NCBI GenBank assembly: GCA_030446555.1 | Contig: JAUJNA010000001.1 | Span: 238,634 to 302,633 of the forward strand | From: Chloroflexota bacterium | GTDB lineage: Bacteria > Chloroflexota > Limnocylindria > Limnocylindrales > CSP1-4 | Reading direction: 5' to 3' | DNA length: 64,000 nucleotides | Shown here: positions 5,376-30,350 of the stretch, one piece after another | Layout: each line of letters starts with the position of its first letter | How positions within the stretch are numbered: the first letter of the stretch is position 1 | The notes under the pieces: generated by a model | The model's input: only the letters and a program-made list of their open reading frames with translations | What the model was told of the DNA's origin: nothing | Databases searched by the model: none | Translations under genes and position numbers: made by a program

Positions 5376-5735
5376 GTGACGACCGGACTCTGGTACGTGC
5401 TCGGCTTCGCGTTCGCCGGCTTCGCGTTCGTGTTCCTCACCATCGGCCTCGCGTGGCTGATCAGTCATCGGCACAAGGGCGATCGCCATAAGGGTCTGCC
5501 CTACGAGTCGGGCATCGACACGTACGGTGATACCTGGGGCCGGTTCGGACTCTCCTTCTACATCTACGCGCTGCTGTTCGTCGCGTTCGACATCGAGGTG
5601 ATCTTCATCTACCTCTGGGCTCTCGCCTTCAACGACGTCCTGCTCGGTGGCTTCCTCAGCATGCTGGCGTTCGTGGGCATCCTCCTGCTGGGACTGGGAT
5701 ATGCGTGGCGCAAGGGCGTGCTGACATGGAAGTGA
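5376..5735 (+). CDS. nuoA: NADH-quinone oxidoreductase subunit A
   Basis: 119 aa, GTG start. Three TM helices with the NuoA/ND3 signature (…YESGIDTYGDTWGRFGLSFYIYALLFVAFDIEVIFIYLWA…). Confidence 0.9.
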   Translation: MTTGLWYVLGFAFAGFAFVFLTIGLAWLISHRHKGDRHKGLPYESGIDTYGDTWGRFGLSFYIYALLFVAFDIEVIFIYLWALAFNDVLLGGFLSMLAFVGILLLGLGYAWRKGVLTWK

Positions 5736-5738: not shown

Positions 5739-6545
5739 ATGGATGAGAACAGGGACCCCGGGCGGGCGACCAACCTGACGCCATGGGGACAGCAGGTCTC
5801 GAACACGGGGGGCGACGAACCGGTGGCCGGGCGGGGCGATCCGCCCGCGATGGGGTCCGATCAACCGAGCCACGTCTCCGACGGGCTCGTCTCGGGGGCG
5901 CGCGACCGGGCGGTGATGGAGCCCATCGTCGTGCCCAACACAGCATGGGTGCCAGCCGATCCCGCCGCGTATGGCGGCGGACAGCCGCCCCATGTGGCGC
6001 ATCTCCGCGAGCTGGAGTTCGCCGACAAGTCCGACAACGGGCGCTGGGGAGCGCTGGATGCGATCCCCACCAAGGCGGACTACGTGCTCGATCTCATCCG
6101 CCTCAACAGCCTTTGGCCACTGCTCTCGGGTCTCGCATGCTGCGCCCTCGAGATGATGTCTGCGGCCACCAGCCGCAACGATATGGATCGCTTCGGGATG
6201 TTCCCATTCCGGGCCAGCCCCCGGCAGGCGGACGTCCTGATCGTGGCCGGGACCCTGACGACGAAGATGGCCGGTCCGCTGATCCGTCTCTGGGAGCAGA
6301 TGCCCGAGCCCAAGTGGTGCGTGGCGATGGGGGATTGCACCACATCGGGGGGTCGCTACAAGCGTTCCTACGCCACCGTGGAGGGCATCGACCGCATCAT
6401 GCCGGTGGACGTCTACGTGCCCGGCTGCCCGCCGCGCCCGGAGGGCCTCATCTACGGGATGATGAAGCTCCAGCAGCTCATCAAGGATCGGCGCGGTCAC
6501 TGGCCGGAGCGGGCGGTCGGCCCGACCGTGCCGACCGGCATCTGA
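5739..6545 (+). CDS. nuoB: NADH-quinone oxidoreductase subunit B (with about 100-aa Pro/Gly-rich N-terminal extension; start uncertain)
   Basis: The C-terminal 170 aa are canonical NuoB (…[17 protein letters not shown]…MGDCTTSGG…[12 protein letters not shown]…), including the N2 cluster cysteines. The ATG at 5739 overlaps the nuoA stop region. Internal alternative starts (M38, M61) are possible. Confidence 0.85.
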
Positions 6546-6549: not shown

Positions 6550-7209
6550 CTGACCGCCCAGGGGTTTGCCACGGACACCGCACTGAAGCGCCGTCTGGAT
6601 GATCGCCTGCGCGAGCACCTGCTCGGGCCCGCCACCGCGCGCCAGGACACCACCGAGATCCGCATCGCGCCGCAGAGCGTGACGCCGGTCATGACCGCAC
6701 TCCACGACGATGAGGCGTTCCGCTTCCCGATCCTGTCCGACCTGTGCGGAGTGGACACGGGCACGACCCTGGAGGTGGTCTACCACCTCTGGTCGGACGT
6801 CACGCCCGATTGGGTGCGCGCGTGATCGCCGAGGGGCTGTCGCGCGACGATCGCGCGCGTGCCCTCGGTCACCTTCCTGTGGAACGGAGCCGAGTGGGCC
6901 GAGCGCGAGGCCTATGACATGTTCGGCATCATCTTCGAAGGCAACCGGGACCTGCGACGCATCTACATGCCGCCCGATTACCAGAGCTTCCCGCTGCGCA
7001 AGGACTTCCTCCTGCCCGACGACGCGGCACGGTCGCCGGGCATGGGCATCCGCCACATCGAGCAGCCGTTCCCGCCGGGCGAGTCCCAGCGCCAGCCGGT
7101 GCTGCGCAAGGGACATGGTGCGAAAGCGGCGAACGTGGTCCAGGGTTCGTGGGCCGCCGAGCTGCGCTCGGGCGAGGATCCAGCGGTGGACCGCGAGGTG
7201 TCGCGATGA
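6550..7209 (+). CDS. nuoC: NADH-quinone oxidoreductase subunit C (disrupted: in-frame TGA at 6823-6825, no canonical start codon in frame)
   Basis: N-terminal NuoC region (…[72 protein letters not shown]…) and C-terminal region ([50 protein letters not shown]…) are in the same frame but separated by a TGA. The gene-caller piece 6859-7209 is the C-terminal fragment. The likely start, TTG at 6566, is out of frame. Confidence 0.75.
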
Positions 7210-8430
7210 CGGCCGATCCGGCGACCACCCGCTCACTCGACGACCCGGACATCATGGTGAACACGCCGGCGACCATCGTCGACGCCATCCCGCCCTACCC
7301 GCCGCGCACCGAGCGCGAGGCCGAGTTCTACGCCATGCGCGACGGCGAGATGCTCATCAATTTCGGGCCGCAGCATCCGTCCACCCACACGAGTGCTGCG
7401 CATCGTCCTCAAGATCGACGGCGAACGCATCGTGGACCTCGACCCGGTCCTGGGCTACCTGCACCGTGGCGTCGAGAAGATCTGCGAGAACGGGGACTGG
7501 CATCACGCCATCAGCAACTGCGACCCCCTCGAGTACGCCGCCTCCATGTTTTCGGAGGCGATGCCCGTGCTGGCCGCCGAGAAGCTGCTCGACCTGGAGG
7601 TGCCGCGCCGCGCGGAGTACATCCGCGTGCTCGCCTGGGAGCTCAACAGGGTCGCCAGCCACGCCCTCTTCATCGGCTGGCTGGCGCTCGACCTTGGTGG
7701 CCTGACGCCCATCCTCTATGGCTTCATCGAGCGCGACGAGATCGTGGAGATGCTGGCTGCGCTCACCGGGCAGCGGGTCCTCTTCAACTACCTGCGCATC
7801 GGTGGTGTGAACGGCGACCTGAACCACGACTTCATGAGCCGGCTCGGCGACTGGATGGGGCACGCCCTTCACCGCATCGAGGACCAGCAGAGGCTGCTCA
7901 ACGCCAACGAGATCTTCGTCCGGCGGACCAAGGGATTGGGGATCGTGGACCGCGACATCGCACGCCGCACCTGCCTCTCCGGGCCGGTGCTGCGTGCGAC
8001 GGGCGTCCCGTACGACGTGCGCCGAGCGCACCCCTACAGCGTGTACCCCGAGCTCGACTTCGAGATCCCCACCCGGGAGGAAGGCGACTCGTACGCTCGA
8101 TACCTGCTCCACCTCGACGAGATCAAGCAGAGCATCCGCATCATCGACCAGGTGCTCCACCAGATGCCGGACGGTCCGGTGATGGCCAAGATCCCGCGCC
8201 TCCTGCGCATCCCGCCCGGTCGCGCCTACATCTCGGTCGAGAGCCCGCGCGGCCAGTACTCGTGCTACGCGATGAGCGATGGATCGGACCAGCCGTTCCG
8301 TCTGCGCATCCACGACCCCTCGTTCTTCAACCTCCAGGCCGTCGGCCTCGTGATGCCCGGGAACCTCATCGCCGACACGATGGCGGTCATGGCCAGCCTG
8401 GATCCCATCATGGGCGGGGTCGACAAGTGA
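7206..8430 (+). CDS. nuoD: NADH-quinone oxidoreductase subunit D (apparent frameshift near 7388-7393)
   Basis: ATG at 7206 overlaps the nuoC stop (ATGA). The N-terminus …[11 protein letters not shown] is in frame 0 (ORF 7149-8465). The remainder, [32 protein letters not shown]…[28 protein letters not shown]…, is in frame +1 (ORF 7393-8430). The 49-kDa subunit signature is complete once the frames are joined. Confidence 0.85.
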
Positions 8431-8461: not shown

Positions 8462-9865
8462 GTGAGCGTCATCACGCGTCCCTGGTCACGGCTCACGCTG
8501 GCGGGCAAGATCGTCATCCCGCTGATCTTCCTGTTCGTGCTCCTGAACGTCCTGCTCATCGCGGGCTTCGCGACGGGGGTGCTGCCGTTCCTCGGCGGGC
8601 TCCTCCTGCGGATCATCAACGACAACGTCGACATCGTGCGCTTCATCGGCGCGGTGACGGCCCTGCTCCTGTTCACCGTGCCGGCCGCGTTCGTGATCAT
8701 CTTCATGGAGCTGAAGCTCATCGCCTTCGTCAACCTGCGGCTGGGCCCCAACCGGCAGGGGCCGTGGGGCGTCCTGAGCTCGACGCTCCACGGCTTGAAG
8801 GTCCTGGCCAAGGAGGACTTCACGCCCACCGGCGCGGACGTGCCTGTCTTCACGCTGGCGCCGGTGGTGACCTATCTCGGCGCGGTGATGACGATCATGG
8901 TCATCCCGTTCGCACCGGGCCTCTTCGGCATCGACCTGAACATCGGCCTGCTCTACTTCTTCGCGGTGGCCGGCCTCACGACGATCGGACTGATCATGGC
9001 CGGCTGGGCGAGCTTCAACAAGTACAGTCTCCTCGGCGGCCTGCGGGCAGCCGCAGCCATCATCTCGGCGGAGATCCCCCTGACGCTGGCAGCGGTGGGC
9101 GTGATCCTGCTGACCGGGACGCTGAGCCTGAACGAGATCGTCCTGCGCCAGGCGGGGAGTGCCCTCGATTGGTTCGTCTTCCAGCAGCCCCTCGGGTTCG
9201 TGGTCTTCTTCATCGCCGCCACCATCGAGGCGGGACGCACACCGTTCGACATGGCCGAGGCGGACAGCGAGATCGTGGCCGGCTTCGCGACCGAGTACAG
9301 CGGCATGCGCTTCGGCTTCTTCTTCTTCGCCGAGTACGTCAACCTCTTCATCATCTCGGCACTCACGGTGACGCTCTTCCTGGGCGGCTGGAACGCGCCG
9401 TTCGACATCGCCATCGTGCTCGACCGGCTGGGCATCGTCGTCGACCCCACACTCGACCCGGGCTCGCTGGGCATGGGCCTGCTGTGGCTGCTGCTGCTCG
9501 TCCCGCCTATCGCCATCCTGCTGCTGGCGCTGCCGTTCTGGCTCCTGCGGTCCGACTGGTCATTGCTGAAGTCGCTGGTCGTGGGCTTCCTGCTCTTCAA
9601 CCTGGTGGTGATGGTGCTCGTGGGCATCTGGGCCTACATGTCGTTCCCGTTCGTGGCCGGCATCTTCTGGTTCCTGGGCAAGACGTTCACGCTCGTTGCG
9701 CTCTTCGTCATCATGCGCGGCACGCTGCCACGGATCCGTATCGACCAGCTGATGGGCGTGGCATGGAAGTGGCTGATCCCCGCCGCGTTGCTCAACATCT
9801 TCATCACGGCGGCGGCCATCGTCATCCTGCGTGATCCGAGCCTCCCCTGGAACGGAGGCGGCTGA
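8462..9865 (+). CDS. nuoH: NADH-quinone oxidoreductase subunit H (extended, 467 aa)
   Basis: NuoH/ND1 motifs (…NLRLGPNRQGPWGVLSSTLHGLKVLAKEDFTPTGAD…EAGRTPFDMAEADSEIVAGFATEYSGMRFGFFF…) with extra N- and C-terminal TM segments. GTG start 31 nt after the nuoD stop. Confidence 0.9.
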   Translation: MSVITRPWSRLTLAGKIVIPLIFLFVLLNVLLIAGFATGVLPFLGGLLLRIINDNVDIVRFIGAVTALLLFTVPAAFVIIFMELKLIAFVNLRLGPNRQGPWGVLSSTLHGLKVLAKEDFTPTGADVPVFTLAPVVTYLGAVMTIMVIPFAPGLFGIDLNIGLLYFFAVAGLTTIGLIMAGWASFNKYSLLGGLRAAAAIISAEIPLTLAAVGVILLTGTLSLNEIVLRQAGSALDWFVFQQPLGFVVFFIAATIEAGRTPFDMAEADSEIVAGFATEYSGMRFGFFFFAEYVNLFIISALTVTLFLGGWNAPFDIAIVLDRLGIVVDPTLDPGSLGMGLLWLLLLVPPIAILLLALPFWLLRSDWSLLKSLVVGFLLFNLVVMVLVGIWAYMSFPFVAGIFWFLGKTFTLVALFVIMRGTLPRIRIDQLMGVAWKWLIPAALLNIFITAAAIVILRDPSLPWNGGG

Positions 9866-9866
9866 G

Positions 9867-10706
9867 ATGTCGTTCATGGATCGGATGCCCGGCTGGGGCC
9901 TGGTGAAGGGGGTCGCCTTCGGCATGGCCCAGATGCTCCGACCCAAGGTCACCGTCCAGTACCCCGAGGTGGTGCAGGAGATCTCCCCGCGGCACCGAGG
10001 CAGGTTGCTGCTCCTCTACGACGAGTTCGGCACGCTCAAATGCGAGACCTGCTTCCAATGCGCCGCCGCCTGTCCCATCGAGTGCATCGACATGGGCGGC
10101 GTGGACACGAAGAGCCGGTTCTACCTGCACTGGGGACCGGCCGAGCAATACGCCGAGCGACGTGAGGACTCCGCGCTCAGGCGCTCCGGACGGCCGGTGC
10201 CCGACCGCAGCTTCTCGGCCTGGCAGGGTATCGATCTGGCCCCACTCCAGGCGATCATCGCCGAGGAGCAGTACAGCCCCCGTCGGATGCTGCGCATCCT
10301 GGAGCGGACCCAGGAGACCTACGGCAACCTGCCGGTCGCGGCGATCCAGCACATCAGCGCCACGACGGGTGCCTGGTACAGCGAGATCTACGGCATCGCC
10401 ACGAGCTATCCCCATCTCCGCTTCGAGCCGGCGGCGAGTCACGAGATCGCGGTCTGCCGTTGCGCCGTCTGCTCGATGGCTGGTGCCGGCCGCATCCTCG
10501 CCGCTCTCGTCGACGCGCTGGGGACGGACCTTGACGGCGTCAGCCCGGACGGCCGCGTGCGGCTCACGAGGGCGGACTGCGGCGGCGAGGGAGGTCCTCT
10601 CGTCCTCGTCGACGGGCATCCTCAGTCGAGCATGACGCCTTTGCGGGCCACCGAGATCGCCGCCCACCTGCGGACGGGTCACCTACCCGCTGGTCCGCCG
10701 GCCTGA
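9867..10706 (+). CDS. NuoI-like (single [4Fe-4S] motif) fused to NuoE-like thioredoxin-fold [2Fe-2S] domain
   Basis: ATG at 9867 preceded by GGAGG. The N-terminal 100 aa are NuoI-like (…KVTVQYPEVVQEISPRHRGRLLLLYDEFGTLKCETCFQCAAACPIECI…) but carry only one CxxCxxCxxxCP motif. The C-terminal 150 aa are NuoE/24-kDa-like (…RMLRILERTQETYGNLPVAAIQHISATTGAWYSEIYGIATSYPHLRF…EIAVCRCAVCSMAGAGRILAALVDALG…VRLTRADCGGEGGPLVLVDG…). No cysteine codons occur in any frame across the junction (10100-10260). Confidence 0.8.
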   Translation: MSFMDRMPGWGLVKGVAFGMAQMLRPKVTVQYPEVVQEISPRHRGRLLLLYDEFGTLKCETCFQCAAACPIECIDMGGVDTKSRFYLHWGPAEQYAERREDSALRRSGRPVPDRSFSAWQGIDLAPLQAIIAEEQYSPRRMLRILERTQETYGNLPVAAIQHISATTGAWYSEIYGIATSYPHLRFEPAASHEIAVCRCAVCSMAGAGRILAALVDALGTDLDGVSPDGRVRLTRADCGGEGGPLVLVDGHPQSSMTPLRATEIAAHLRTGHLPAGPPA

Positions 10707-10708: not shown

Positions 10709-12029
10709 ATGCGCATCCTTCCCCTCGGCCGACGGGTGGCCGACGATGCTGCTGTCGCGCTCCGCGGATGGTGCGCCGGAGCCCACGCTCGCCTCAACCG
10801 CGGCACAGGGCGGCTGGGCCGCATGGCGCCGCGCTGCATCACCCGGATGAGTCCGGAAGAGGTCACCCGCCTCGTCCACGAGTCGGGCCTGCGCGGCCGG
10901 GGCGGCGCCGGCTACCCCACGGGTCAGAAGTGGCGAGCGTGCGCCGCTCGACCCGATGCCGTGCGCTACGCCGTCGCCAACGGGTTCGAGGCCGACCCCG
11001 GAGCGCAGCTGGACCGGACGCTCATGGAGCGGGACCCGCACGCCGTCTTGGAGGGCCTGGCCCTGGCGGCCTATGCCGTGCGTGCCCACCAGGCGTACCT
11101 GGCGGTCAAGGCATCGAGCACGCTCGCCGTGCGCCGGCTGCGCGACGCCCTTCGAGAGGCCGAGGCAGGGCGCTACCTGGGCACGGACATCCTGGGCTCC
11201 GGGTATGACCTGCACGTGGAGATCCGCGAGCTTGCCGGCTCGTTCGTCCTTGGCGAGGAGACCGTGCTGCTCAGAGCGCTCGAGAACAAGCGGGCCCAGC
11301 CCGACCAGCGGCCGCCGTGGCCGGCCGAGCGCGGTCTCTTCGACAAGCCCACCGTGGTCAACAACGTCGAGACCCTCGCCGCGGTGCCCGGCATCGTGGG
11401 CGACGGCGGGACGGCCTTCGGAGGGAGCGGCCTCCCGTCGGCACCCGGCACCACCCTCGTCCAGGTCAGTGGCGCGGTGCATCGACCCGGTATCGCCGAG
11501 GTCCCCATGGGCACCCCTGGCCCAGGTGCTGAGCCTGGCAGGCCTGTCGGAGGCGCCCAAGGCGGTGCTCGTCGGTGGTCCCTCGGGCGGCTTCCTGCCG
11601 CCAGGCGAGCTGGACGCGCCCATCGAGCCGGCGTCGCTCGCCGAGCGCGGTGCGGTCTGGGGCTCGGGGACGGTGGTCGTCGCGGATGCGCGGACGTGCA
11701 TCGTCGACATGGCCAGCCTCATGACGCGCTACCTGAACGACGAGGCATGCGGCAAGACGATCCCGTGCCGCATCGGCCTACGCCGCCTCGCCGAGATCGC
11801 GGAGCGCTTCACCGACGGTCGCCCCCGGCCCACCGACGCGCAGCTCGTGGACGACCTCGCCTCCGACACCCGGGACGGTGCGCTGTGTGCCCTGGAATCG
11901 ACCGCCACGAACCCGCTCCTGAGCGGGATGCGATACTTCATGCCCGAGTTCGAGGACCACATCATCCGGGGCCATTGCCCGGCCGGTGTCTGCCAGCCCC
12001 TCCGCGTGGCGGCCGGAGCCACTCGATGA
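10709..12029 (+). CDS. nuoF: NADH-quinone oxidoreductase subunit F (51-kDa, FMN/NADH-binding; apparent frameshift near 11515)
   Basis: ATG 2 nt after the nuoI/E stop. N-part in frame 2 (…SGLRGRGGAGYPTGQKW…FEADPGAQLDRTLMERDPHAVLEGLALAAYAV…LGEETVLLRALENKRAQPDQRPP…TVVNNVETLAAVPGIVGDGGTAF…VSGAVHRPGIAEVPMGTP). C-part in frame 0 (ORF 10956-12029: …LAQVLSLAGLSEAPKAVLVGGPSGGFLP…DEACGKTIPCRIGLRRLAEIAERF…CALESTATNPLLSGMRYF…). Confidence 0.85.
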
Positions 12030-12075
12030 CGCCCATGCCGGGGAGCGACTCGCACTCCAGGAGCCGCCGCGTCCG

Positions 12076-14687
12076 ATGACCGACACCCTGCCCCAGATCC
12101 GCGACGCGGCTCCCGACACGGTGGTGGAGCGCCTGCTCGAGACGCAGGCACCGCAGCGTCCGATGTCGGCACCCACGTTCACCGTCGAGATCGACGGACG
12201 GCAGCTGACCGGGCGCGTGGGCCAGACCATCCTGGAGATCTGCCGTGACAACGGGATCGAGGTCCCGACCCTCTGCTACGAGCCGAAGCTGCCGGGCTTC
12301 GGAGCGTGCCGCATGTGCGTGGTGGAGGTGGATGGAGAAGGCCAGCCGCCCATCAGCTGCTCGCGGGCCGCGGAGGCCGGCATGGTGGTCCGCACGCAGA
12401 CGCCGCGCCTTCGCCAGGTCCGCAAGACGAACCTGGAGCTCATCTTCAGCGACCACAACGCCTACTGCCTGCCGCCCTGCCAGAACAAGTGCCCCAGCCA
12501 TATCGACATCCCGGGCTTCCTCAAGGCGAACACCGAGGGTGACCCGCGCGAATCGACGCGCATCTTCAAGCGCACCATCCCTTTCCCAGCGTGCTGGGCC
12601 GGGTCTGCCCGGCTCCGTGCGAGGAGCATTGCCGCCGCGACGAGGTCGACGAGGCGATCGCCATCCGCGACAGCCACCGCTGGGCGGGTGACCAGGTCCT
12701 GAAGGCCCAGGCACGGGGAGAGCGAGCGCCCGTGCCGTTCGACGTGCAGCCGCCGTCGGGCAAGCGGGTGGCGGTCATCGGCTCGGGACCGGCCGGCATG
12801 TCGGCGGCGTACTACCTGGCCATCGCCGGCCACGGCGTCACGGTCTTCGAGCGCGACCCGGCGCCCGGCGGCATGCTGCGCTACGGCATCCCGCAGTACC
12901 GCCTGCCCAAGGTCGAGGTGCTCGAGGCCGAGTACCAGGGAGTGTGGGATCTCGGCGTCAAGGTCGTCACCGACGCGGCCCTGGGACGCGACTTCACGCT
13001 GGACGACCTGCAGAACCAGGGCTTCGACGCGGTGTGCGTGGCCATCGGCTGCTACGACACGAACAAGCTGGGAGTGCCGGGCGAGGAGGCCGTGGGCGTC
13101 CTGGACGGCCTCGAGTATCTCCGTGTCGCGACCCTCGGCCTGCCCTTCCCGGGCCACGCCGGGACACGGGTGGTCGTCATCGGTGGCGGCTTCACCTCGA
13201 TGGACTGCACCCGCACCTCGGTCCGCCAGGGTGCCGCCGAGGTGACGCTGGTCTACCGCCGCGACATGAAGGACATGCCGGCCGCCAACGAGGTCCACGA
13301 GGCGCTCGAGGAGGGCGCCCGGGCCATCTTCCAGGCGGCTCCCACGCGCGTCATCACCGATGACCAGGACCGCGTGACGGGCGTCGAGTTCCAGCGCATG
13401 CGCCTGGGCGAGCCCGACGCGTCGGGTCGGCGACGCCCCGAGCCCGTGGCCGGCACCGAGTTCGTCATCGAGTGCGACCGCGTCCTGCTCGCCATCGGCC
13501 AGGGCCCCGACCTGACCTGGCTGGACCGCGGCGCGAGCGGCGTCAGCGCCACGAAGAACAGGCGCCTGGCGGCCGATGCGGTCACCTTCACGACCGGTCG
13601 CCCAGGGGTCTTCGGCACGGGCGACGTGCGCATCGGTGCCGCCACCGTGGTCCAGGCCAATGCCGAGGGCCGCCGCGCCGCCTACGCCATCGATGCCTAT
13701 CTCCAGGGTCAGGACCTCGACGCCATCAGGACCCGTCAGACCTTGGCTGAGCCGCAGCCCGAGTTCCTCTCGATCGTGCCCTACACGGGCGAGGTGAAGG
13801 AGCCGCGCTACCGCCTCAAGGCGATGGGCGCCGAGGACCGCAACCGCAGCTACGTCGAGTACGAGATCCCCTACACGCAGCAGGAGGCGATGGCCGAGTC
13901 GGCGCGCTGCCTCCAGTGCACCTGCGAAGCGATCGGGTACTGCGACCTGCGGCGCCAGGGCATCGAGTACGGGACCACGCTGAAGACCCTCGAGCCGCAG
14001 GCGCGTGGCGCCTTCAGCTACCGCAGCGTGTCCGAGAACCGCTTCACCGGCACGAACCACGACTACATCCGCGACGACAGCCACGCCTTCATCCTGCGCG
14101 AGCCGTCGCGCTGCATCGACTGTGGTCGCTGCGCCAACGTGTGCAAGGAGATCGTGGGCGCGGCCTGCTACGACTTCATGCGCACCGGGTTCGACACACT
14201 GGTCACGACGCCGCTCGACATGAGCCTCAACACCACGCCCTGTGTCTCCTGCGGCCGCTGCGCGGAGACGTGTCCCACCGGAGCGCTCATGCCCAAGCCG
14301 CGCGTGCTCGAGAAGTACGACGTGGACGAGACGCGCTGCATCCTGTGCGGCATCTGCGTCGACGCCTGTCCCTACGACGCCCTGCGCTGCGGCCCCGACT
14401 TCGAGCTCAGCCACGAGAGCCGAGCCGAGCCGATGATCGACCTGATGGCCATCAGCGCCATCGACCGGGACACCGAGATCACCTACGTGCGCCGGGAGCG
14501 TGACTGGCTGGAGCGCGCCCAGGCGTCGGGACGCGGACTGCCCGCCGGCCGGTTCCTGCCGGTGCTCCCGGCCACGTCGCAGGCCGGCAACGGCCACACG
14601 CACTCCAACGGACACGGCGCGGCTCACGGCGGCACGGGTGGCCACGGTCCCGGTGGGACCGGCGGTCCCGTCACGCACGGCCCCTAG
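12076..14687 (+). CDS. [2Fe-2S] ferredoxin / GltD-like FAD-NAD(P)H oxidoreductase / 2x[4Fe-4S] ferredoxin fusion, occupying the NuoG position (apparent frameshift near 12586)
   Basis: The N-terminus is a NuoG/HoxU-like 2Fe-2S domain ([52 protein letters not shown]). Next comes the GltD N-terminal cluster motif ([19 protein letters not shown] … [12 protein letters not shown], split between frames 1 and 0 at a C homopolymer). Then the glutamate-synthase-small-subunit core ([48 protein letters not shown]…) and C-terminal CxxCxxCxxxC(P) motifs ([35 protein letters not shown]). The molybdopterin-fold of NuoG is absent. Confidence 0.8.
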
Positions 14688-14701: not shown

Positions 14702-15379
14702 GTGGCTCTTCCTCAGACGATCCCGTTCCTGGGCTGGTCCTGGGACGACTTGATCTTCCTCGTCCTGGCAGGTCTGATGCTGGGCGGAGCGGTGATGGTC
14801 GTCATCGGGCGCAACATCATCCGCTCGGGTCTCTTCATGATCCTCTCGTTCGCGGCCCTGGCCGGCTTCTACGTGCTCCTGGGGGCACCCATCGTGGCCG
14901 CGGCACAGGTCCTCATCTACATCGGCGCCATCAGCGTGCTCATCCTCTTCGCCATCATGCTCACGCAGTCGAAGGCAGGTCCCTCGCGTCTCGTCTTCCA
15001 TCACCAGGCCTGGGCCGGTGCGATCGCCGCCATCGGGCTTGCGTCGCTCCTCGTGCTCGTGGTCCTCTCCACCGACTGGCCGGCGCAGGTGGGACAGGGC
15101 ACGGCGGCCGGCACGACCGCCGTCGCGCAGCTGCTCTTCTCGGAGTACGTGCTCGCGTTCGAGGTCGTGAGCGTCCTGCTTCTCGCCGCGGTGATCGGCG
15201 GCGTCTTCCTGGCCAAGCGCGAGGAGTCGCTCGACCCCGGCGAGCGGGCAGGCGACGAGCCCACGCTGGGACGCAACCAGTCACCACCCGTGCAGGCCGA
15301 CGGCCGTCCGTCCGCTTCGACTCCTCGGCAGGTCAGCGGGTCGGCGCGCTCCACGACCGCGATCTCGGAGCGGCCATGA
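14702..15379 (+). CDS. nuoJ: NADH-quinone oxidoreductase subunit J (with low-complexity C-terminal extension)
   Basis: GTG at 14702. NuoJ/ND6-like core (…[20 protein letters not shown]…). The C-terminal 60 aa are Pro/Ser/Arg-rich. The stop overlaps the nuoK start (ATGA). Confidence 0.8.
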
Positions 15380-15687
15380 CCCAGTCGCTGGACGCCTACC
15401 TGATCCTGGCCAGTCTCCTCTTCACGATCGGCACGTTCGGCTTCCTCGCCAGACGGAACGCCATCGCCATGCTCATGTCCATCGAGCTCATGCTCAATGC
15501 CGTGAACCTGGCCATCGTGGCGTTCGGCGCGTACGTTCCCACGCTGGCCGAGGATGGCGCGCTGATCGCGCTCTTCGTCATGGCCGTGGCGGCGGCCGAG
15601 GCCACCGTGGGGCTGGCCATCATCATCGCCATCTACCGTAACCGGAGGACGCCGCTCGTCGACGAGTACGCGTCGATGCGCGAATGA
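15376..15687 (+). CDS. nuoK: NADH-quinone oxidoreductase subunit K
   Basis: 103 aa, [46 protein letters not shown]…, the NuoK/ND4L signature. Confidence 0.9.
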
Positions 15688-15756: not shown

Positions 15757-17763
15757 GTGCCCTTCTTCACCGAGGCGCCCGAGACGGTCGCGACCGCGGG
15801 TAGCTCGCTCGATCAGGCGCTCGTGCTGGCGCTCCTGGCGCTGCCGCTGGCCGGCTTCGGGCTGACGGCGCTCGTCGGGAGGCGGATGGGCGACAAGGCC
15901 TGGGCCATCGCCGTACCGGCCATCGTCCTCGTCTGGCTGGCCGCGCTGTACCTCATCTTCCAGACGCTGGTCGCGGGAGCGTACGGCGAGGCGGGCTTGC
16001 ACTTCCGCCTGTACGAGTGGATCCCGGCGGGCGACTTCACGGTCGAGGTGGACTTCGGCGTGGATGCCCTCACCGCGGTGATGCTCATCGTCGTCACGAC
16101 CGTGGGCATGCTCGTCCACGTCTACTCCATCGGCTACATGGCGCACGATCCCGGCCGATGGCGCTTCTTCGCCTATCTCAACTTCTTCATGTTCAGCATG
16201 CTCCTGCTGGTCCTGGCCGACAACTTCCTGCTGCTCTTCGTGGCATGGGAGCTCGTGGGGCTGTCGAGCTACCTGCTCATCGGATTCTGGTATCGCCGGC
16301 GCAGCGCGGCTCTGGCGGCCAAGAAGGCCTTCATCGTCAACCGTGCGGGCGACTTCGGCTTCGGGCTCGGGATCATGGCCATCTGGACGACCGTGGGCAC
16401 TCTGGACTACTCGGACGTGTTCCAGCTGCTGCCCGCTCAGGTGGAGAGCGGGGCCATCGAGGGTTGGCAGATGACCGGCATCTGCCTGCTCCTCTTCGCG
16501 GGCGCCATCGGCAAGAGCGCGCAGTTCCCGCTCCACGTCTGGCTGCCCGACGCGATGGAAGGGCCGACCCCGGTGAGCGCCCTCATCCACGCCGCCACGA
16601 TGGTCAACGCGGGGGTCTACCTCGTGGCACGCGCCAACCCACTCTTCGCGCAGTCGCCTGAGGCGCTGCTCGTCGTGGCGCTCGTCGGCACGTTCACCTG
16701 CGTCATGGCCGCCGCCATCGCGTTCACGCAGAAGGACATCAAGCGCGTGCTGGCGTACTCGACGCTGAGCCAGCTGGGATACATGTTCATGGCTCTGGGC
16801 GTGGGCGCCTTCGTGCCGGCCATCTTCCACCTCGTGACGCACGGCTTCTTCAAGGGTCTGCTCTTCCTTGGCTCGGGCTCCGTGATCCATGCGGTCCACG
16901 AGGAGCAGGACATGGATCGCATGGGTGGCCTCTGGCGCCGCATCGGCATCACCCACGTCACCATGCTCATCGGCTCGCTGGCCATCGCGGGCATCCCGCC
17001 GCTGGCGGGTTTCTTCAGCAAGGACGAGATCCTGGGAGAGTCATTCAAGCTCGGCTTCGGCTGGGTCTGGGCGATCGGCATCATCGTCGCGGTCATGACC
17101 GCGCTCTACATGTTCCGGCTGATGGGCAAGACCTTCTACGGGCCCAGCAACGTCGACCCGCACACCGAGCCCCGGATCCACGAGTCGCCCATCTCCATGA
17201 CCGGCCCACTCATGCTCCTGGCGGTGCCGTCCGTGCTGATCGGCTTTGCGCTGGGCTGGCCGCCCGAGAGCGGCCTCATCCACCAGTGGCTCGCGCCGGT
17301 GTTCCATCCGCTGGAGGAGGCGCTCCACCATGGCGCCGCCGACTATCAGCTGCTGGGCATCGATGGGTTCCTGCTGGGCGCGAGCGTCGCGGTCTCGGCG
17401 GTGGGCATGGTCGTCGCCTGGCGCCTCTTCGGCTTCCTCAGCACCATGGCGCCCCGCCCGGCGCTGGTCGCGAGCCTGACCGCCCGGCTCAACGGGCCGT
17501 ACCGCATCTCGCGCGACAAGTGGTACTTCGACGACCTGAACCACCTGCTCTTCGTGCGCGTCGGGGGAGCGGTCGCGCGCGCCCTCTGGTGGTTCGACGT
17601 CCACGTCATCGATGGCGCCGTGAACGGCGTCGCGTCGCTCACCCAGGGCACCGGTCACGGGCTGCGCCAGATCCAGACCGGCCGCGTCCAGAACTACGCC
17701 CTGGGCATCGCCGGCGGCCTGCTCGTCATCGCGGTGGGGTATCTCTTCATCGTGGCGCGCTGA
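15757..17763 (+). CDS. nuoL: NADH-quinone oxidoreductase subunit L
   Basis: 668-aa antiporter-like subunit (…WELVGLSSYLLIGFWYRRRSAALAAKKAFIVNRAGDFGF…) with the long C-terminal amphipathic helix region. GTG at 15757 preceded by AAGAGGG. Confidence 0.9.
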   Translation: MPFFTEAPETVATAGSSLDQALVLALLALPLAGFGLTALVGRRMGDKAWAIAVPAIVLVWLAALYLIFQTLVAGAYGEAGLHFRLYEWIPAGDFTVEVDFGVDALTAVMLIVVTTVGMLVHVYSIGYMAHDPGRWRFFAYLNFFMFSMLLLVLADNFLLLFVAWELVGLSSYLLIGFWYRRRSAALAAKKAFIVNRAGDFGFGLGIMAIWTTVGTLDYSDVFQLLPAQVESGAIEGWQMTGICLLLFAGAIGKSAQFPLHVWLPDAMEGPTPVSALIHAATMVNAGVYLVARANPLFAQSPEALLVVALVGTFTCVMAAAIAFTQKDIKRVLAYSTLSQLGYMFMALGVGAFVPAIFHLVTHGFFKGLLFLGSGSVIHAVHEEQDMDRMGGLWRRIGITHVTMLIGSLAIAGIPPLAGFFSKDEILGESFKLGFGWVWAIGIIVAVMTALYMFRLMGKTFYGPSNVDPHTEPRIHESPISMTGPLMLLAVPSVLIGFALGWPPESGLIHQWLAPVFHPLEEALHHGAADYQLLGIDGFLLGASVAVSAVGMVVAWRLFGFLSTMAPRPALVASLTARLNGPYRISRDKWYFDDLNHLLFVRVGGAVARALWWFDVHVIDGAVNGVASLTQGTGHGLRQIQTGRVQNYALGIAGGLLVIAVGYLFIVAR

Positions 17764-19289
17764 TGGACCTCGGCGGACTGCCCATCCTCAGCGCGGTCAT
17801 CTTCACGCCGCTCATCGGCGCGCTGCTCATCGCGCTCGTGCCGCGCGAGCGCGAGGATCTGACGCGCTGGCTGGCGCTCGGCACGGCGCTCGTCACCTTC
17901 GGGCTGTCGCTGCTCCTGCTGCCGGGATTCGACCCGACGGCGCCCGGCTTCCAGTACGTGGAGACGGCCGACTGGATCCCCGCCTTCGGCATCCAGTACA
18001 AGGTCGGCGTCGATGGCATGGCCCTGGTCCTGGTGCTGCTGACCACGACGCTGACGTGGATCAGCATCCTGGCCAGCTTCGGGCCCATCAGGTCGCGGCT
18101 GAAGGAGTACATGATCTCCTTCCTCATCCTCGAGGTGGGGATGATCGGCGTCTTCCTTGCCCTGGACCTCTTCCTCTTCTACATCTTCTGGGAGATGGTG
18201 CTGGTGCCGATGTACCTGATCATCGGCATCTGGGGCGGCGCGAACCGCATCTACGCCACGCTCAAGTTCGTGCTCTACACGCTGGTCGGCTCGCTGCTCA
18301 TGCTGGTGGCCATCCTGGCCGCGGCGTTCAGCTTCCAGTCGGCCACCGGCTCGTGGGCGGGCGCGTTCGACTTCGAGCAGCTGCGCGGATTCGGGTTCGA
18401 CCCGACGCTCCAGTTCTTCGCCTTCGGCGCCTTCTTCCTGGCATTCGCCATCAAGGTGCCCATGTTCCCCTTCCATACCTGGCTGCCTGACGCGCACGTG
18501 GAGGCACCGACCGCCGGGTCGGTCATCCTGGCCGGCGTCCTGCTCAAGCTGGGCGGCTATGGGATCATCCGGTTCTGCCTGCCGCTCTTCCCCGACGCGG
18601 CGCAGCAGTGGGCGCCGCTCCTCATCGTCCTGTCGCTCATCGCCATCATCTACGGCGCCATCGTGGCCATGGTCCAGCCCGACCTCAAGAAGCTGGTCGC
18701 GTACAGCTCGGTCAGCCACATGGGCTTCGTGACCCTGGGTATCTTCATCTTCCAGCCACAGGGGATGCAGGGCGCGATCCTCCAGATGGTCAACCATGGG
18801 ATCATCACCGGTGCCCTCTTCCTGTGCGTGGGCGTGCTCTACGAGCGGACGCACGATCGGTCGATCGCCCGGATGGGCGGCCTCGCGGCGTCCACCCCGG
18901 TCTACGCCGCCATCTTCGGCTTCTTCATGCTCGCCTCGCTCGGGCTCCCCGGGATGGCCGGCTTCGTGGGCGAGTTCCTGGTCCTGCTCGGCACCTTCGA
19001 CCACTCGCCGATCGCCGCGGCGGTCGCGTCGGTCGTCGTCATCCTCGCCGCCGGATACCTCATGTGGATGTACCAGCGAGTCGTCTTCGGCGAGCTGTCG
19101 GACTTCCTCAAGGGCGTGGGTCACCACCTGACCGACATGGACCGCCGGGAGCTGGTGACGCTGACGCCGCTGGTGGGCTTGACGCTCGTCTTGGGGGTCG
19201 CCCCCGCCCTCGTCCTGGACCTGATCCAGATGCCGGTCGGTGAGGTGCTCGCTCGCGTCGGGGGCTCCCTCGTGGGAGCGGCCCCATGA
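17763..19289 (+). CDS. nuoM: NADH-quinone oxidoreductase subunit M
   Basis: ATG at 17763 overlaps the nuoL stop. NuoM/ND4 motifs (…FPFHTWLPDAHVEAPTAGSVILAGVLLKLGGYG…). Confidence 0.9.
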   Translation: MDLGGLPILSAVIFTPLIGALLIALVPREREDLTRWLALGTALVTFGLSLLLLPGFDPTAPGFQYVETADWIPAFGIQYKVGVDGMALVLVLLTTTLTWISILASFGPIRSRLKEYMISFLILEVGMIGVFLALDLFLFYIFWEMVLVPMYLIIGIWGGANRIYATLKFVLYTLVGSLLMLVAILAAAFSFQSATGSWAGAFDFEQLRGFGFDPTLQFFAFGAFFLAFAIKVPMFPFHTWLPDAHVEAPTAGSVILAGVLLKLGGYGIIRFCLPLFPDAAQQWAPLLIVLSLIAIIYGAIVAMVQPDLKKLVAYSSVSHMGFVTLGIFIFQPQGMQGAILQMVNHGIITGALFLCVGVLYERTHDRSIARMGGLAASTPVYAAIFGFFMLASLGLPGMAGFVGEFLVLLGTFDHSPIAAAVASVVVILAAGYLMWMYQRVVFGELSDFLKGVGHHLTDMDRRELVTLTPLVGLTLVLGVAPALVLDLIQMPVGEVLARVGGSLVGAAP

Positions 19290-20821
19290 GCCAGAACGAC
19301 CTGATCGCGCTCCTGCCGCTCGTCGTGGTCGTGGGACTTGCCATGGCCGTCGTCATCATCGACATGATCGTCCCCGACCGCGATGACCTCGTGGGCGTCG
19401 TGGCGAGCGGCGGCCTCCTCCTGACGCTCGCCGTGATCGCGGTGGCGGGTCCACTGCCGGGAGGCATCGGACTGCTGCCCGTCGAGGGAGAGCAGCTCTT
19501 CGAGAGCGCCACTGGCGGTGGCGTGCTGGTACGCGACCAGCTGACGGCCTTCCTGGACCTGCTCTTCGTGATGATCGGCCTGCTCAGCCTGCTCTTCGCG
19601 GCCGACTACCTGAAGCCGCGCAACCTGCCCATGGCCGAGTTCGCGGCGACGCTGCTCTTCGCCATCAGCGGCGCGATGCTCCTGGCCGGCGGGCGCGACC
19701 TGCTCATCCTGTTCCTGGGCCTGGAGCTGCTGGTCCTGCCGGGCTACATGCTGGCCGGCTACGCGAAGCGCGATGGCCTCTCGACCGAGGGAGCCGTCAA
19801 GTACTTCCTCCTGGGCAGCTTCTCGAGCGCCATCTTCCTGTTCGGCCTGGCGCTCGTCCTCGGCTTCACGGGCTCCACCCGTGTGGAGGAGATCGCCATC
19901 GTCCTGGCCGGGGTAGCGGCAGGCGACGCGCCGCTCTCCTTGGGATTGGCTATGGGCCTGGCGCTGCTGACCACGGGGGTGGCCTTCAAGATCGCCGCCG
20001 TGCCCTTCCACTACTGGACGCCTGACGCCTATCAGGGCTCGCCCACGCCCGTCACAGGGTATCTCTCGGTCGGGCCGAAGATCGCCGCGTTCGCGCTCAT
20101 CCTGCGCCTCTTCGTCGACGCGCTCGGTCCCTTGAAGGCCGACTGGCTGCCGTTCGTCATCGTGCTGGCGGCTATCACGATGACCCTCGGCAACCTCGTC
20201 GCGATCACGCAGGACAACATCAAGCGGATGCTGGCGTACAGCTCCATCGCTCACACCGGGTACATCCTGGTGGGGTTGGCCGCGTACGCGGCGGCGCCCG
20301 TCCGCTCATATGCCGAGCAGGCCGGTCTCGAGGGTGTGCTGTTCTACAGCGCCGTGTACGCCTTCATGAACCTGGGCGCCTTCGCCTGCGTGGCGGCGCT
20401 CCAGCGCCGGCCGGGGGTCACCAGCCAGATCGCCAGCTTCGCCGGCCTGGGCCGGCGGGCGCCGCTACTGGGCGCGGCCATGTTCCTCTTCCTCCTGTCG
20501 CTCACCGGCATCCCGCCGCTGGCCGGCTTCTGGGCCAAGTGGTACGTGATCCAAGCGGCGCTGCAGGCCGGTGGCCTCGTCGCATGGCTTGCCGTGCTGA
20601 TGATGCTCAACGCCACGGCCGCGGCGTTCTACTACCTGCGCGTGGTCGTCTACATGTACATGCGCGAGGCGCCCGATGCCGCCCGGCCGGTCTCGCTGGG
20701 CGCCTTCACCCGGGTCGGCTTGGTCGTCTCGGCGGCGTTCACGATCCTCATCGGGGTGGCGCCTCCGGTGACCACCGCGGTCATCGACATGGCGAGGCAG
20801 GCGGCACAGGCGCTGCTTTGA
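19286..20821 (+). CDS. nuoN: NADH-quinone oxidoreductase subunit N
   Basis: ATG at 19286 overlaps the nuoM stop (ATGA). NuoN/ND2 motifs (…VPFHYWTPDAYQGSPTPVTGYLSVGPKIAAF…). It is the last gene of the operon. Confidence 0.9.
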   Translation: MSQNDLIALLPLVVVVGLAMAVVIIDMIVPDRDDLVGVVASGGLLLTLAVIAVAGPLPGGIGLLPVEGEQLFESATGGGVLVRDQLTAFLDLLFVMIGLLSLLFAADYLKPRNLPMAEFAATLLFAISGAMLLAGGRDLLILFLGLELLVLPGYMLAGYAKRDGLSTEGAVKYFLLGSFSSAIFLFGLALVLGFTGSTRVEEIAIVLAGVAAGDAPLSLGLAMGLALLTTGVAFKIAAVPFHYWTPDAYQGSPTPVTGYLSVGPKIAAFALILRLFVDALGPLKADWLPFVIVLAAITMTLGNLVAITQDNIKRMLAYSSIAHTGYILVGLAAYAAAPVRSYAEQAGLEGVLFYSAVYAFMNLGAFACVAALQRRPGVTSQIASFAGLGRRAPLLGAAMFLFLLSLTGIPPLAGFWAKWYVIQAALQAGGLVAWLAVLMMLNATAAAFYYLRVVVYMYMREAPDAARPVSLGAFTRVGLVVSAAFTILIGVAPPVTTAVIDMARQAAQALL

Positions 20822-20865
20822 CCGTCGAGCGAGCGGAGGTGCCCGTCCAGCCGGCCGAGGACGGG

Positions 20866-22503
20866 ATGCGACCGTCGGTCACCGCGCAGGAGCGGTCCGA
20901 GGCCTCCGCTCGGGCCCGGGCGATCAGGGAGCCCCTCTCGCGGCTGCTGGTTGGCGATCAGCGGCTCGTCGTCGTCTCCAACCGAGGGCCTCTGTCGTTC
21001 CGCCGCACGCGGGCCGATGCATGGCGTGCCGCACGCGGATCGGGAGGGCTGGTCACCGCGTTGGGCGAGCTGGGCAGGCTCGCACCCGTGACATGGGTCA
21101 GCGCCGCGATGGACGCCGGGGACCGAGCTGCCGGCGAGGCACTGGCGACCACCGGCGACGCCAGTGATCGGCTGCGTCAGGTGATCGCGGACGAGATGCC
21201 TGGCCAGGACCTCGAGCTGCGCCTGGTGGACGTGGAAGACGAGGCGTGGCGGAACCACTACTCGGTGGTCGCCAATCCGTTCCTCTGGTTCCTCCAGCAC
21301 CAGCTGTACCAGCTGCCCTACGAGCCACGGGTCGACGACAGCCTGATCGGCGCCTGGCGCGATGGATACGCCGTGGTCAACGAGCGGCTGGGCCGGGCGG
21401 CCGCGGCGGCGGGCGGCTCGGAGCACCGGCCGGTCATCCTGCTCCAGGACTACCACCTCTACCTCTGCGCTCCGGCGGTCAGAACCCTCCGTCCCGATGC
21501 CATCCTGATGCACTTCAATCACATCCCGTGGCCTTCGGTGGAGGCGTGGCAGGTCCTGCCGCAGGGGATGCGCCGGGCCATCTGCGAGGGGCTCCTGTCC
21601 AACGACATCCTGGGCTTCCAGACCGACCGGCACGCGACGAACTTCCTCCTGGCGGCCGAGGCGTTCGTGCGCGATGCCCACGTGGACCCGTCCGGGCGGA
21701 ATGTGCGCTGGCGGGGCCGGACCATCTGGGTGCGCTCCTATCCCATCTCGCTCGACCCGGGGGCGCTGACCTCGTTCGCCGGCGGACCGGCGGTGCGGAG
21801 CTGGCGGAAGCGGCTGCGCGAGCGCCTGGAGCGAGCCGGCCGCCCACAGGTCATCGTTCGTGTGGACCGCCTGGAGCCGTCCAAGAACGCCTTGCGCGGC
21901 TTCCTCGCCTTCGAGGCACTCCTTGAGCGCGAGCCGGAGCTCCGCCGCGCCGTCCGCTTCATCGCCATCCAGTCGACCAGCCGCGAGAACATCCCCGAGT
22001 ACGCGCGCTATGCCGCTGAGGTGCGCGAGGTCGTCGCGCGGGTGAACGGCATGGGTGACCCGGACGAACAGCCCATCTGGCTCCTGGACGGCACCGACTA
22101 CGCCCTCGCCATCGCGGCTCTCCAGCTGGCGGACGTCGTGCTCGTCAATCCCATCGTGGATGGCATGAACCTGGTGGCGAAGGAGGCCGTCCTGGTCGGC
22201 GAGCCCGTGCTCGTCCTCTCGGAGACGGCCGGCGCGGCGGAGCAGCTGGCCGCAGACAGCCTCACCGTCACCGCAGCTGATGTCGCGGGGACGAGCCGGA
22301 CGCTGCTCGACGCGTTGCGGATGCCGCGGGAGGAGCGCCTCTACCACCTCCGCCGGCTGCGCCAGAGTGTGCGCAACGAGGACCTCTCCTGGTGGCTGGG
22401 ACGTCAGGTCCGGGACCTCGCAGCCGTCGCGAGTGGCGGCCGGCCGCCCAGCCGGCAGCTGCGCGACACGACGCGGCGCTTCGAACCGATCCTTTTCGGT
22501 TAG
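20866..22503 (+). CDS. otsA: alpha,alpha-trehalose-phosphate synthase (GT20)
   Basis: OtsA signature (…LVVVSNRGPLSF…GGLVTALG…ILLQDYHLYLCAPAVR…DRLEPSKN…VNPIVDGMNLVAKE…). Start taken at ATG 20866; the ORF extends upstream to 20539. Confidence 0.85.
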   Translation: MRPSVTAQERSEASARARAIREPLSRLLVGDQRLVVVSNRGPLSFRRTRADAWRAARGSGGLVTALGELGRLAPVTWVSAAMDAGDRAAGEALATTGDASDRLRQVIADEMPGQDLELRLVDVEDEAWRNHYSVVANPFLWFLQHQLYQLPYEPRVDDSLIGAWRDGYAVVNERLGRAAAAAGGSEHRPVILLQDYHLYLCAPAVRTLRPDAILMHFNHIPWPSVEAWQVLPQGMRRAICEGLLSNDILGFQTDRHATNFLLAAEAFVRDAHVDPSGRNVRWRGRTIWVRSYPISLDPGALTSFAGGPAVRSWRKRLRERLERAGRPQVIVRVDRLEPSKNALRGFLAFEALLEREPELRRAVRFIAIQSTSRENIPEYARYAAEVREVVARVNGMGDPDEQPIWLLDGTDYALAIAALQLADVVLVNPIVDGMNLVAKEAVLVGEPVLVLSETAGAAEQLAADSLTVTAADVAGTSRTLLDALRMPREERLYHLRRLRQSVRNEDLSWWLGRQVRDLAAVASGGRPPSRQLRDTTRRFEPILFG

Positions 22504-27926: not shown

Positions 27927-28274
27927 GTGCCCACACCTGCCCGCATCCGATCCACGCTGGCCATGATCGCCGCCCCGCCGGAGGATCTGCGCGATGTCGC
28001 CGTCTACCACAAGACGCTGGCCGACCCGACCCGCCTGCGCCTGCTGCGGCGTCTGGTCATCGGGCCGGCCACGGTGACGGAGCTCATCGACCATGTGGAT
28101 CTGAGCCAGCCGCTGGTCTCGTGGCACCTCAGACGGCTGAAGGCGGCCGGTCTGGTGGAGACGCAGCGCAACGGCCGCGAGGTCATCTGCTCGCTGCGAC
28201 GCGAGGCGTTCGACGCTACCAGCAGCGCGCGCGCGCTCCTCGGCCTCGTCGAGACCTCACCGAGCGCCGCGTGA
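27927..28274 (+). CDS. ArsR/SmtB-family transcriptional regulator
   Basis: 115-aa winged-HTH protein (…YHKTLADPTRLRLLRRLVIGPATVTELIDHVDLSQPLVSWHLRRLKAAGLV…). Confidence 0.85.
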   Translation: MPTPARIRSTLAMIAAPPEDLRDVAVYHKTLADPTRLRLLRRLVIGPATVTELIDHVDLSQPLVSWHLRRLKAAGLVETQRNGREVICSLRREAFDATSSARALLGLVETSPSAA

Positions 28275-28988: not shown

Positions 28989-28992
28989 TCAG

Positions 28993-30261: not shown

Positions 30262-30350
30262 CCGCTGCGCGGGAGCGAGCGTCGCGCCCCGCGGCGCCCG
30301 CCGGCTCCGGCGTCTCGTACGCACCGCACCGCCGCGCCTCGGGCGGGCGC

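Follow-up and report, generated by a model that had tools for sequence, protein, structure and literature searches.

StnABC of Sporomusa ovata (8OH5) and the Nfn-ABC/Nfn-Bfu enzymes (9BOV; T. sibiricus 9N5U) are encoded in the order E-like, F-like, [2Fe-2S]-GltD-NuoG-like subunit. StnC consists of a GltD-type NADPH/FAD domain (aa 102-565) fused with a NuoG domain; electrons travel along FAD-C7-C6-C5-C4-C3 to the flavoprotein, and C2/C1 form a non-functional side branch toward an inactive FdhF-like domain (PMC10482914). Relatives of complex I that use other input modules are known. Operons of 11-subunit complex I-like enzymes have the order nuoABCDHIJKLMN, and both the electron donor of these enzymes and its docking place are an open question (PMC11238625). 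A 14-subunit (A-N) gene cluster named Nuo-Bfu has been predicted in Deferribacteres, Proteobacteria, Planctomycetes and Nitrospirae (PMC9304861). A gltD-related flavoprotein replacing NuoI in Mbx-like operons was described by Degli Esposti 2015 (PMC4758237). Here we analyse a stretch of 64,000 nucleotides (the window; contig JAUJNA010000001.1, positions 238,634 to 302,633) from a Chloroflexota bacterium of the class Limnocylindria, in which a StnC-like gene, named X below (12076..14687, + strand), lies in an operon of complex I (nuo) genes. X is probably the central electron-wire subunit of a non-canonical complex I whose donor cassette is situated in nuoI, and the split of its reading frame in the window is most likely an assembly indel.

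The gene order in the window, established with Pfam and tblastn, is nuoA-B-C-D-H-[I_N::E]-F-[X::I_C]-J-K-L-M-N, where I_N and I_C denote the N- and C-terminal halves of NuoI. All membrane subunits of complex I (A, H, J, K, L, M, N) and all Q-module subunits (B, C, D) are encoded in this single operon. The order is non-canonical, as nuoH precedes E instead of standing between G and I. Neither nuoG nor nuoI was found as a separate gene within the operon, in the window or in any locus with enough flank. The initial annotation had placed X inside a nuo operon devoid of a canonical nuoG, and both points hold: X lies between nuoF and nuoJ, with 46 nt at the F-X junction and 14 nt at the X-J junction, and no canonical nuoG was seen in the operons of the window or its relatives.

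The architecture of X and its nuo context recur in all 84 related loci that were fetched, as far as the contigs reach; the window's own genome is not one of them (best nucleotide identity to the window 83-87%). The same operon order is present in a Limnocylindria contig of 2.95 Mb, CAVWSL010000015.1. At least 549 stretches were confirmed when species-representative genomes were scanned. A second clade, found via protein P0137, consists of proteins of about 825 aa that are 43-45% identical to X and are source-named Thermoleophilia (Actinomycetota). The Thermoleophilia loci have the same gene order and the same split NuoI, and for each of the thirteen gene products the identity between the clades is within 29-54%. 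This arrangement is a conserved one, shared by Limnocylindria (Chloroflexota) and by Thermoleophilia (Actinomycetota). The architecture and context of X are far beyond chance, and its embedding among nuo genes is not accidental.

The interval 12076-14687, originally taken as one gene, does not form a single frame: it has 2612 nt, which is no multiple of three, and contains two open reading frames (ORFs) in different frames. The ORF 11986..12702 encodes the 2Fe-2S domain and the start of the GltD-type Fe-S domain, and the ORF 12591..14687 encodes the remainder of X. The two join only by adding one base in the C-run 12585-12587. Restoring this base, as supported by Pfam, PDB and DNA alignments, yields a protein of 870 aa. 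Its Pfam matches are Fer2_4 (aa 34-109), Fer4_20 (131-210), Pyr_redox_2 (231-532) and two Fer4 (723-771), with a weak match to Fer4_Nqo3 (673-738). The domain order suggested by the initial annotation, a [2Fe-2S] domain followed by a GltD-like region and Fe-S motifs, is thus borne out on the corrected protein, and the GltD-like nature of the central region is confirmed by Fer4_20, Pyr_redox_2 and alignment with StnC (8oh5_C) and 9bov_A, the insert following residue ~100. The C-terminal part had been described as containing two CxxCxxCxxxCP motifs. In fact it contains a CxxCxCx5C motif and three CxxCxxCxxxC motifs (aa 680, 723 and 755, motifs 1 to 3 below), with one extra conserved Cys besides the cluster motifs.

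Four segments of X can be located on the plus strand. The Cys block of a HydA/NuoG-type [2Fe-2S] cluster is at 12274..12360 (Pfam Fer2_4), its four Cys being invariant in 122 homologues. The GltD/NfnL-like insert, with an Hx3Cx3Cx3 motif, an FAD motif and VYRR for NADPH, occupies 12454..13670 (Pfam, AlphaFold2 (AF2) model, Foldseek). It is followed by a HydA/StnC-like Fe-S region at 13908..14276, recognised by alignment to StnC and 9bov_A and by invariant Cys; motif 1 is at 14112-14147, the extra conserved Cys within 14160-14174 and motif 2 at 14241-14276. The last segment, at 14304..14450, is the NuoI C-terminal half. None of the FAD/NADPH and Cys/His positions varies among the 122 homologues, which come from two phyla, and the window keeps all of them.

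Residues 36-766 of X span the structure alignments with StnC/NfnA-type subunits. The best matches are subunit A of Nfn-ABC from C. saccharolyticus (9bov_A, residues 7-699, E 2e-161), StnC of S. ovata (8oh5_C, residues 5-701, E 3e-147) and NfnA of T. sibiricus (9n5u_A, residues 3-517 and 553-726, E 2e-138). The likeness to StnABC/Nfn-ABC extends over about 700 residues, among them the FAD/NADPH site, the clusters of the GltD part, the CxxCxCx5C cluster and the HydA-like pair. Downstream of the insert, the HydA/NuoG-like Fe-S region is collinear with StnC residues ~566-701. Matches to NfnB/NfnL (E 2e-80) and GltD (E 2e-64) are far behind. A Foldseek search with the AF2 model of X gave the same ranking, with matches to NfnI, GltD and DPD. 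In this model the predicted local distance difference test score (pLDDT) exceeds 90 in the GltD part, and the 2Fe-2S part is also confident (two-clade alignment).

The end of X is different. Pfam detects no FdhF/molybdopterin-like domain on it, and the matches to StnC and 9bov_A end at ~700 of ~1175 residues. X terminates about 100 aa past motif 3, and the C-terminal ~470 aa of StnC/NfnA are missing. A search of 1.84 billion representatives gave full-length relatives with ~40% identity, nearly all of which were 1000-1400 aa long and carried the FdhF-like domain; one protein, P0137 (816 aa), shares the short form. X is not a member of GltD proper. It has 870 aa and extra Fe-S domains instead of being a stand-alone protein of ~470 aa acting with GltB, the GltD families score under their own cut-offs on it, and its neighbours are nuo genes, not gltB. 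Its current annotations are 'FAD-dependent oxidoreductase', 'formate dehydrogenase major subunit' and 'glutamate synthase beta-like'. As a separate observation, the StnC/NfnA-like proteins P0139, P0154, P0189, P0193, P0203 and P0208 (812-853 aa) all end in ...NN(I/V)DHCARL. Their gene calls seem to stop early at an in-frame UGA, possibly a selenocysteine codon, in the FdhF-like domain, and therefore some 'inactive' FdhF-like domains of this family may be real Sec-containing formate dehydrogenases.

The two halves of NuoI reside on two fusion genes. The last ~50 conserved residues of X correspond to the second half of NuoI (TIGR01971 positions 71-115 of 121), and the best single-domain PDB matches of this end are NuoI/TYKY chains, reaching into the tail past the motif (PDFEL). 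The gene I_N::E (9867..10706, +) starts with ~85 residues corresponding to the first half (TIGR01971 positions 2-66 of 121), and the NuoE domain comes next (NCBIfam nuoE_fam, Pfam 2Fe-2S_thioredx). I_N contains an amphipathic helix, YPE..RxRG and the first CxxCxxCxxxCP motif at 10041-10076. Every significant PDB match of I_N (E < 0.001) is to the N-terminal half of NuoI/NDUFS8. On E. coli NuoI the two parts are complementary with no overlap, I_N covering residues 25-88 and the end of X residues 92-131. The TIGR01971 split is the same in the window and in Thermoleophilia, and the N-half of NuoI is contiguous with the NuoE domain in the loci checked. The halves score 46 and 52-59 bits, below the family cut-off of 113. 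The 64-kb window contains only four CxxCxxCxxxC motifs, one in I_N::E and three in X. An intact one-polypeptide NuoI, with the helix and two CxxCxxCxxxCP motifs for N6a/N6b, is not what was found, as the profile is split. The upstream gene, initially called NuoE-like, does have a NuoE domain, but it is a NuoI(N-half)::NuoE fusion and not a plain NuoE. Another reading took motifs 2 and 3 of X together for an entire NuoI fused to it. It would leave 13 Cys for three clusters and provide no NuoI N-terminal helix, and it was dropped because the N-half of NuoI was found on the E gene.

The gene F (10709..12029, +) encodes an FMN/NAD(H) flavoprotein of the BfuB lineage, core only (Pfam Complex1_51K, tblastn in two pieces, DNA alignment, PDB ranking). 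Its best PDB matches are 9bov_B (403 bits), StnB (387 bits) and NfnB (383 bits), versus 289 bits for Thermus Nqo1. The initial assignment of E, F and the GltD-like protein to a trio of the Stn/Nfn-Bfu lineage is upheld, since X is nearest to 9bov_A/StnC/NfnA, F is nearest to the B subunits, and the fold agrees. In the window and in the related locus L001 F has 440 aa and is aligned to residues 117-526 of 9bov_B, that is, to the core. The hallmark of BfuB, an N-terminal 2Fe-2S and a C-terminal 2x[4Fe-4S] domain (clusters B2-B5), is absent from F of the window and present in Thermoleophilia, where the 636-aa F matches HydB/StnB/NfnB from one end to the other, with both the N-terminal 2Fe-2S and the C-terminal 2x4Fe-4S included. 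Because F here is devoid of these extra Fe-S domains, it does not follow that the enzyme works like Stn, and under the criteria of PMC9304861 bifurcation would not be expected in the window's organism.

The simplest reading of the locus would be insertion of a Stn/Nfn-Bfu cassette, because removing E-F-X and rejoining NuoI gives nuoABCDHIJKLMN, and E-F-X is in the order stnA-B-C. A three-gene cassette of the Stn/Nfn-ABC type (E-like, F-like and the GltD::NuoG-like X) may have been inserted into nuoI of an operon of the 11-subunit type. The insertion point would be the inter-motif loop, so that the N-half of NuoI became fused in front of E and the C-half remained at the end of X. The two halves are predicted to pair and rebuild N6a/N6b; in fact I_N::E and X::I_C would have to pair, because each cluster of the NuoI fold is bound by three Cys from one motif plus the CP-Cys from the second. 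Their pairing would anchor the flavoprotein module (E, X) on NuoB/C/D/H. NADH would be oxidised at the FMN of F, whereas NADPH would use the FAD in the GltD-like domain of X. On both paths the electrons would pass through X by way of its 2Fe-2S cluster, its CxxCxCx5C cluster and its HydA-like pair. The branch unused in StnC (C3 to C2) would continue here through the split-NuoI N6a/N6b to N2 in NuoB and to quinone, and reduction of the latter would drive proton pumping by A, H and J-N. The likely function of the complex is that of a proton-pumping NAD(P)H:quinone oxidoreductase, and it probably oxidises NADPH besides NADH.

This composition differs from each of the described systems. Unlike in StnABC and Nfn-ABC, X has a NuoI half at its end in place of the FdhF-like C-terminal domain, E also carries a NuoI half, F is without the Bfu-defining Fe-S domains, and the genes lie within a membrane complex I operon. 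The 14-subunit complex I (T. thermophilus Nqo, E. coli) shares with the locus all membrane and Q-module subunits, the FMN flavoprotein, the NuoE domain, the NuoG-type 2Fe-2S N-terminus and the NuoI cluster motifs. However, in our locus H stands before E, the molybdopterin-like domain of NuoG is missing, an additional FAD/NADPH domain is present, NuoI is distributed over two polypeptides, and E, F and X belong to the Bfu lineage and not to that of NuoEFG. The backbone order without the cassette is identical to that of the 11-subunit enzymes (Desulfitobacterium, cyanobacterial NDH-1); in those the donor is unknown, or is ferredoxin, encoded elsewhere, whereas our locus has the donor module encoded within nuoI and covalently joined to it. 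A complex I-like operon with a BfuABC-type N-module is common to our locus and the predicted Nuo-Bfu (PMC9304861), but there the GltD-type NADP(H) domain is ascribed only to Nfn-Bfu, and the main text does not mention NuoI. In the Mbx-like operons (PMC4758237), too, the place of NuoI in a complex I relative is taken by a GltD-like NAD(P)H module. However, they are of the Mbx/hydrogenase type, without E, F and the NuoG-like part, and are compared here by their description. The GltD-NuoG-NuoI(C) subunit, the NuoI(N)::NuoE fusion, the split NuoI and this operon are undescribed in the literature searched, where complex I of Limnocylindria or Thermoleophilia was likewise not described; this is no proof of novelty.

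Several observations weigh against placing X at the centre of a working complex I. Firstly, F has Thr in place of the second Cys of its N3 4Fe-4S motif (EACGKTIPCRIG, window 11640-11680). In the 57 motif matches from the fetched loci and the window this position is occupied by T (44), C (8), S (3) or A (2). CGK(T/S/A)IPC, and not CGKCxPC, is the form seen in most Limnocylindria, whereas the two Thermoleophilia loci have the canonical CGKCVPC; judging from these motifs, Limnocylindria have a variable or relaxed set of N3 ligands. Secondly, the fourth Cys of the NuoE 2Fe-2S site (window 10450-10640) is replaced (DCGGEG; DCHGES in L001). The NuoE domain of I_N::E has an extra Cys in the first motif (CRCxxC), and NuoE of Thermoleophilia has the canonical Cx4C...Cx3C. 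Because the Cys of both N3 and NuoE are changed, the NADH/FMN branch may be impaired or altered. Thirdly, a non-bifurcating enzyme with sites for both NADH and NADPH would also be an uncoupled transhydrogenase, which is physiologically awkward. Further, residues 615-810 of the AF2 model have pLDDT below 50, and because of this the model is of no use for cluster geometry or Cys assignment. Elsewhere in these genomes there may be a separate nuoI, or another nuo operon of canonical type, as the searches covered the operons and the window. Finally, three frameshifts and one double shift in one operon are also compatible with recent decay.

The disrupted genes have to be considered together. In X, DNA alignment with L001 and the related locus L002 shows a C-run (12585..12587, +) with one C missing relative to the intact relatives: the window has TTCCC-AGC where they have TTCCCCAGC or TTCCCGAGC. 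The frame switch seen in the G+C content of third codon positions (GC3) is at ~12580-12590; frame calls were made by a 7-state GC3 model, whose +/- strand calls are unreliable outside the nuo region. nuoC has two nearby indels, a double shift enclosing a stop, and nuoF has a frameshift between 11515 and 11559, its true stop being at 12029 and not 12079. One explanation is that the operon is decaying in this genome and that X, nuoC, nuoD and nuoF are pseudogenes. It would account for four disrupted genes inside 8 kb and for the fact that the indels of nuoC, nuoD and nuoF are not plain homopolymer errors. However, once the single base of X is restored, the ratio of nonsynonymous to synonymous substitution rates (dN/dS) to the closest relative is 0.079, all 163 invariant columns of the 122 homologues are kept, and GC3 stays at about 0.93. 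Moreover, the gene of CDP-alcohol phosphatidyltransferase in an unrelated cluster 16 kb off is also frameshifted (~28470), with the Pfam match beginning at profile position 41 at the switch. Sporadic frameshifts at other positions of X occur in 4 of the 84 loci, which come from metagenome-assembled genomes (MAGs), and three of the four have isolate names of the type MFD....bin and contig names contig_N. We consider decay unlikely. Programmed -1 ribosomal frameshifting at C_CCT_TTC (12579-12585), a slippery-like heptamer immediately preceding the C-run, was considered as well, since the heptamer matches the X_XXY_YYZ pattern and the slip would give exactly the protein sequence of the intact homologues. 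The homologues, however, are single ORFs (more than 120, 845-916 aa, 83-91% identity, several source-named Chloroflexota or Candidatus Limnocylindrales), and in the relatives the site reads CCCCTTCCCC(A/G), so the heptamer is absent. The downstream RNA is no more structured than shuffled sequences (z = -1.5), the shifts of the other loci are at different positions, and the window contains other, unrelated shifts. This possibility, hardly credible on such evidence, was rejected. The shifts in nuoC, nuoD, nuoF and the unrelated lipid gene indicate an indel-prone assembly, and the frame split of X in the window is therefore most likely an assembly or sequencing indel.

Two other enzymes could be built from the same parts. 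In one of them E, F and X would form a soluble Stn/Nfn-like NADH/NADPH(/ferredoxin) transhydrogenase, as X and F are nearest to subunits of the soluble Stn/Nfn-ABC and F of Thermoleophilia has the full BfuB architecture. This is improbable given that NuoI, an obligatory core subunit, is present only as halves fused to E and X, that the FdhF-like domain required for assembly of soluble Stn (PMC10482914) is missing, and that the arrangement is kept across two phyla. The other would be a proton-pumping, electron-confurcating 'Nuo-Bfu' operating on NADH and reduced ferredoxin (and NADP(H)) with quinone. Such complexes were predicted by Schut et al. 2022 (PMC9304861), and the 636-aa F of Thermoleophilia, with its 2Fe-2S and 2x4Fe-4S domains, fully aligns with HydB/StnB. 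For the window we regard it as very unlikely, since F of 440 aa lacks these domains here and in other Limnocylindria and is non-bifurcating by the criteria of PMC9304861. A membrane-bound complex I with X as its electron wire thus remains our preferred reading. The two clades may still differ. Because the full BfuBC core is kept in Thermoleophilia, their enzyme could pump protons as a confurcating NADH/ferredoxin/NADPH:quinone machine. That of Limnocylindria, with the Bfu extras lost and the N3 ligands degrading, may be mainly a NADPH-respiring complex I. It is quite possible, if short of probable, that the whole represents an independent second recruitment of an NAD(P)H head onto the ancient 11-subunit core via nuoI, with a ferredoxin fold divided over two fusion proteins as docking joint, confurcating in Thermoleophilia and mainly NADPH-respiring in Limnocylindria.

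The other nuo genes are all on the plus strand of the window, whose G+C content is about 70%. nuoA (5376..5735) was located by tblastn with NuoA of L001 (87% identity). nuoB (5739..6545), which carries the N2 cluster, matches Pfam Oxidored_q6 and is covered by tblastn at 5916-6542; translation may really begin further into the ORF. At its N-terminus NuoB is extended by ~100 aa, a lineage-specific feature. nuoC (6619..7209; tblastn, frame model, DNA alignment with L001) includes a 33-nt out-of-frame stretch with a stop at ~6818-6850. nuoD (7206..8430) has a frameshift at ~7388-7393, shown by two tblastn pieces in different frames and by DNA alignment. nuoH (8462..9865; Pfam NADHdh, tblastn) encodes ~465 aa versus 375 aa in Thermoleophilia, a lineage-specific extension that adjoins the rearranged peripheral arm. 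Downstream of X are nuoJ (14702..15379, tblastn), nuoK (15376..15687; Pfam Oxidored_q2, tblastn), nuoL (15757..17763; Pfam Proton_antipo_N/M), nuoM (17760..19289; tblastn, 70% identity) and nuoN (19286..20821; tblastn, 66% identity). A '2M' complex I with the ORF 20818-22503 as a fourth antiporter-like gene was considered and dropped, as this ORF encodes a GT20 trehalose-phosphate synthase. The GT20 trehalose-6-phosphate synthase gene has a 4-nt overlap with the stop of nuoN and is the same neighbour in L002; in L001 the position downstream of nuoN is occupied by a trehalose phosphatase gene on the opposite strand. A scan of the region 5-23 kb for promoters and terminators gave no signal above chance, such a scan being uninformative in a high-GC organism.

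Elsewhere in the window, a phosphatidylinositol-mannoside-like lipid cluster (27955-34376) includes an ArsR-type regulator, the CDP-alcohol phosphatidyltransferase, myo-inositol-1-phosphate synthase (28849-30261), a lipid-A-type acyltransferase (31007-32374) and a GT4 glycosyltransferase (33162-34376). The ORF 34398-39794 (- strand, 1798 aa) has domains of PMT-type protein O-mannosyltransferases that are confined to its C-terminal third, and after it comes a TMEM260-like O-mannosyltransferase gene (~41276-41750, +). Possible further frameshifts at ~40984/41095 and ~41783 are in glycosyltransferase-like genes, and Pfam could not confirm them. The window adjoins the replication origin region, with recF (46914-48116, -), dnaN (48142-49257, -), dnaA (49972-51537, -), a non-coding stretch of 1.4 kb (~51335-52714), yidC (52815-54257) and jag (~54270-55420). 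An ORF of 758 aa adjoining recF (44260-46536, -) has no Pfam match. A tmRNA gene is located at 57694-58064 (-), its tag being GNRQPALALAA.

If X and its partners operate as proposed, the donor module covalently fused to both halves of NuoI would mark the docking site on the 11-subunit core. The locus also bears on the origin of the complex I N-module, as a Bfu-type cassette would have joined the core by a route unlike that of the canonical nuoEFG. A natural two-cluster ferredoxin divided over two polypeptides would be relevant to protein engineering. Limnocylindria and Thermoleophilia are abundant, uncultured lineages of soil and freshwater, and in hundreds of their species the arrangement predicts a proton-pumping complex directly oxidising NADPH. 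Because X bears only the annotation names given above, genome-based metabolic models may misread the respiration of these lineages.

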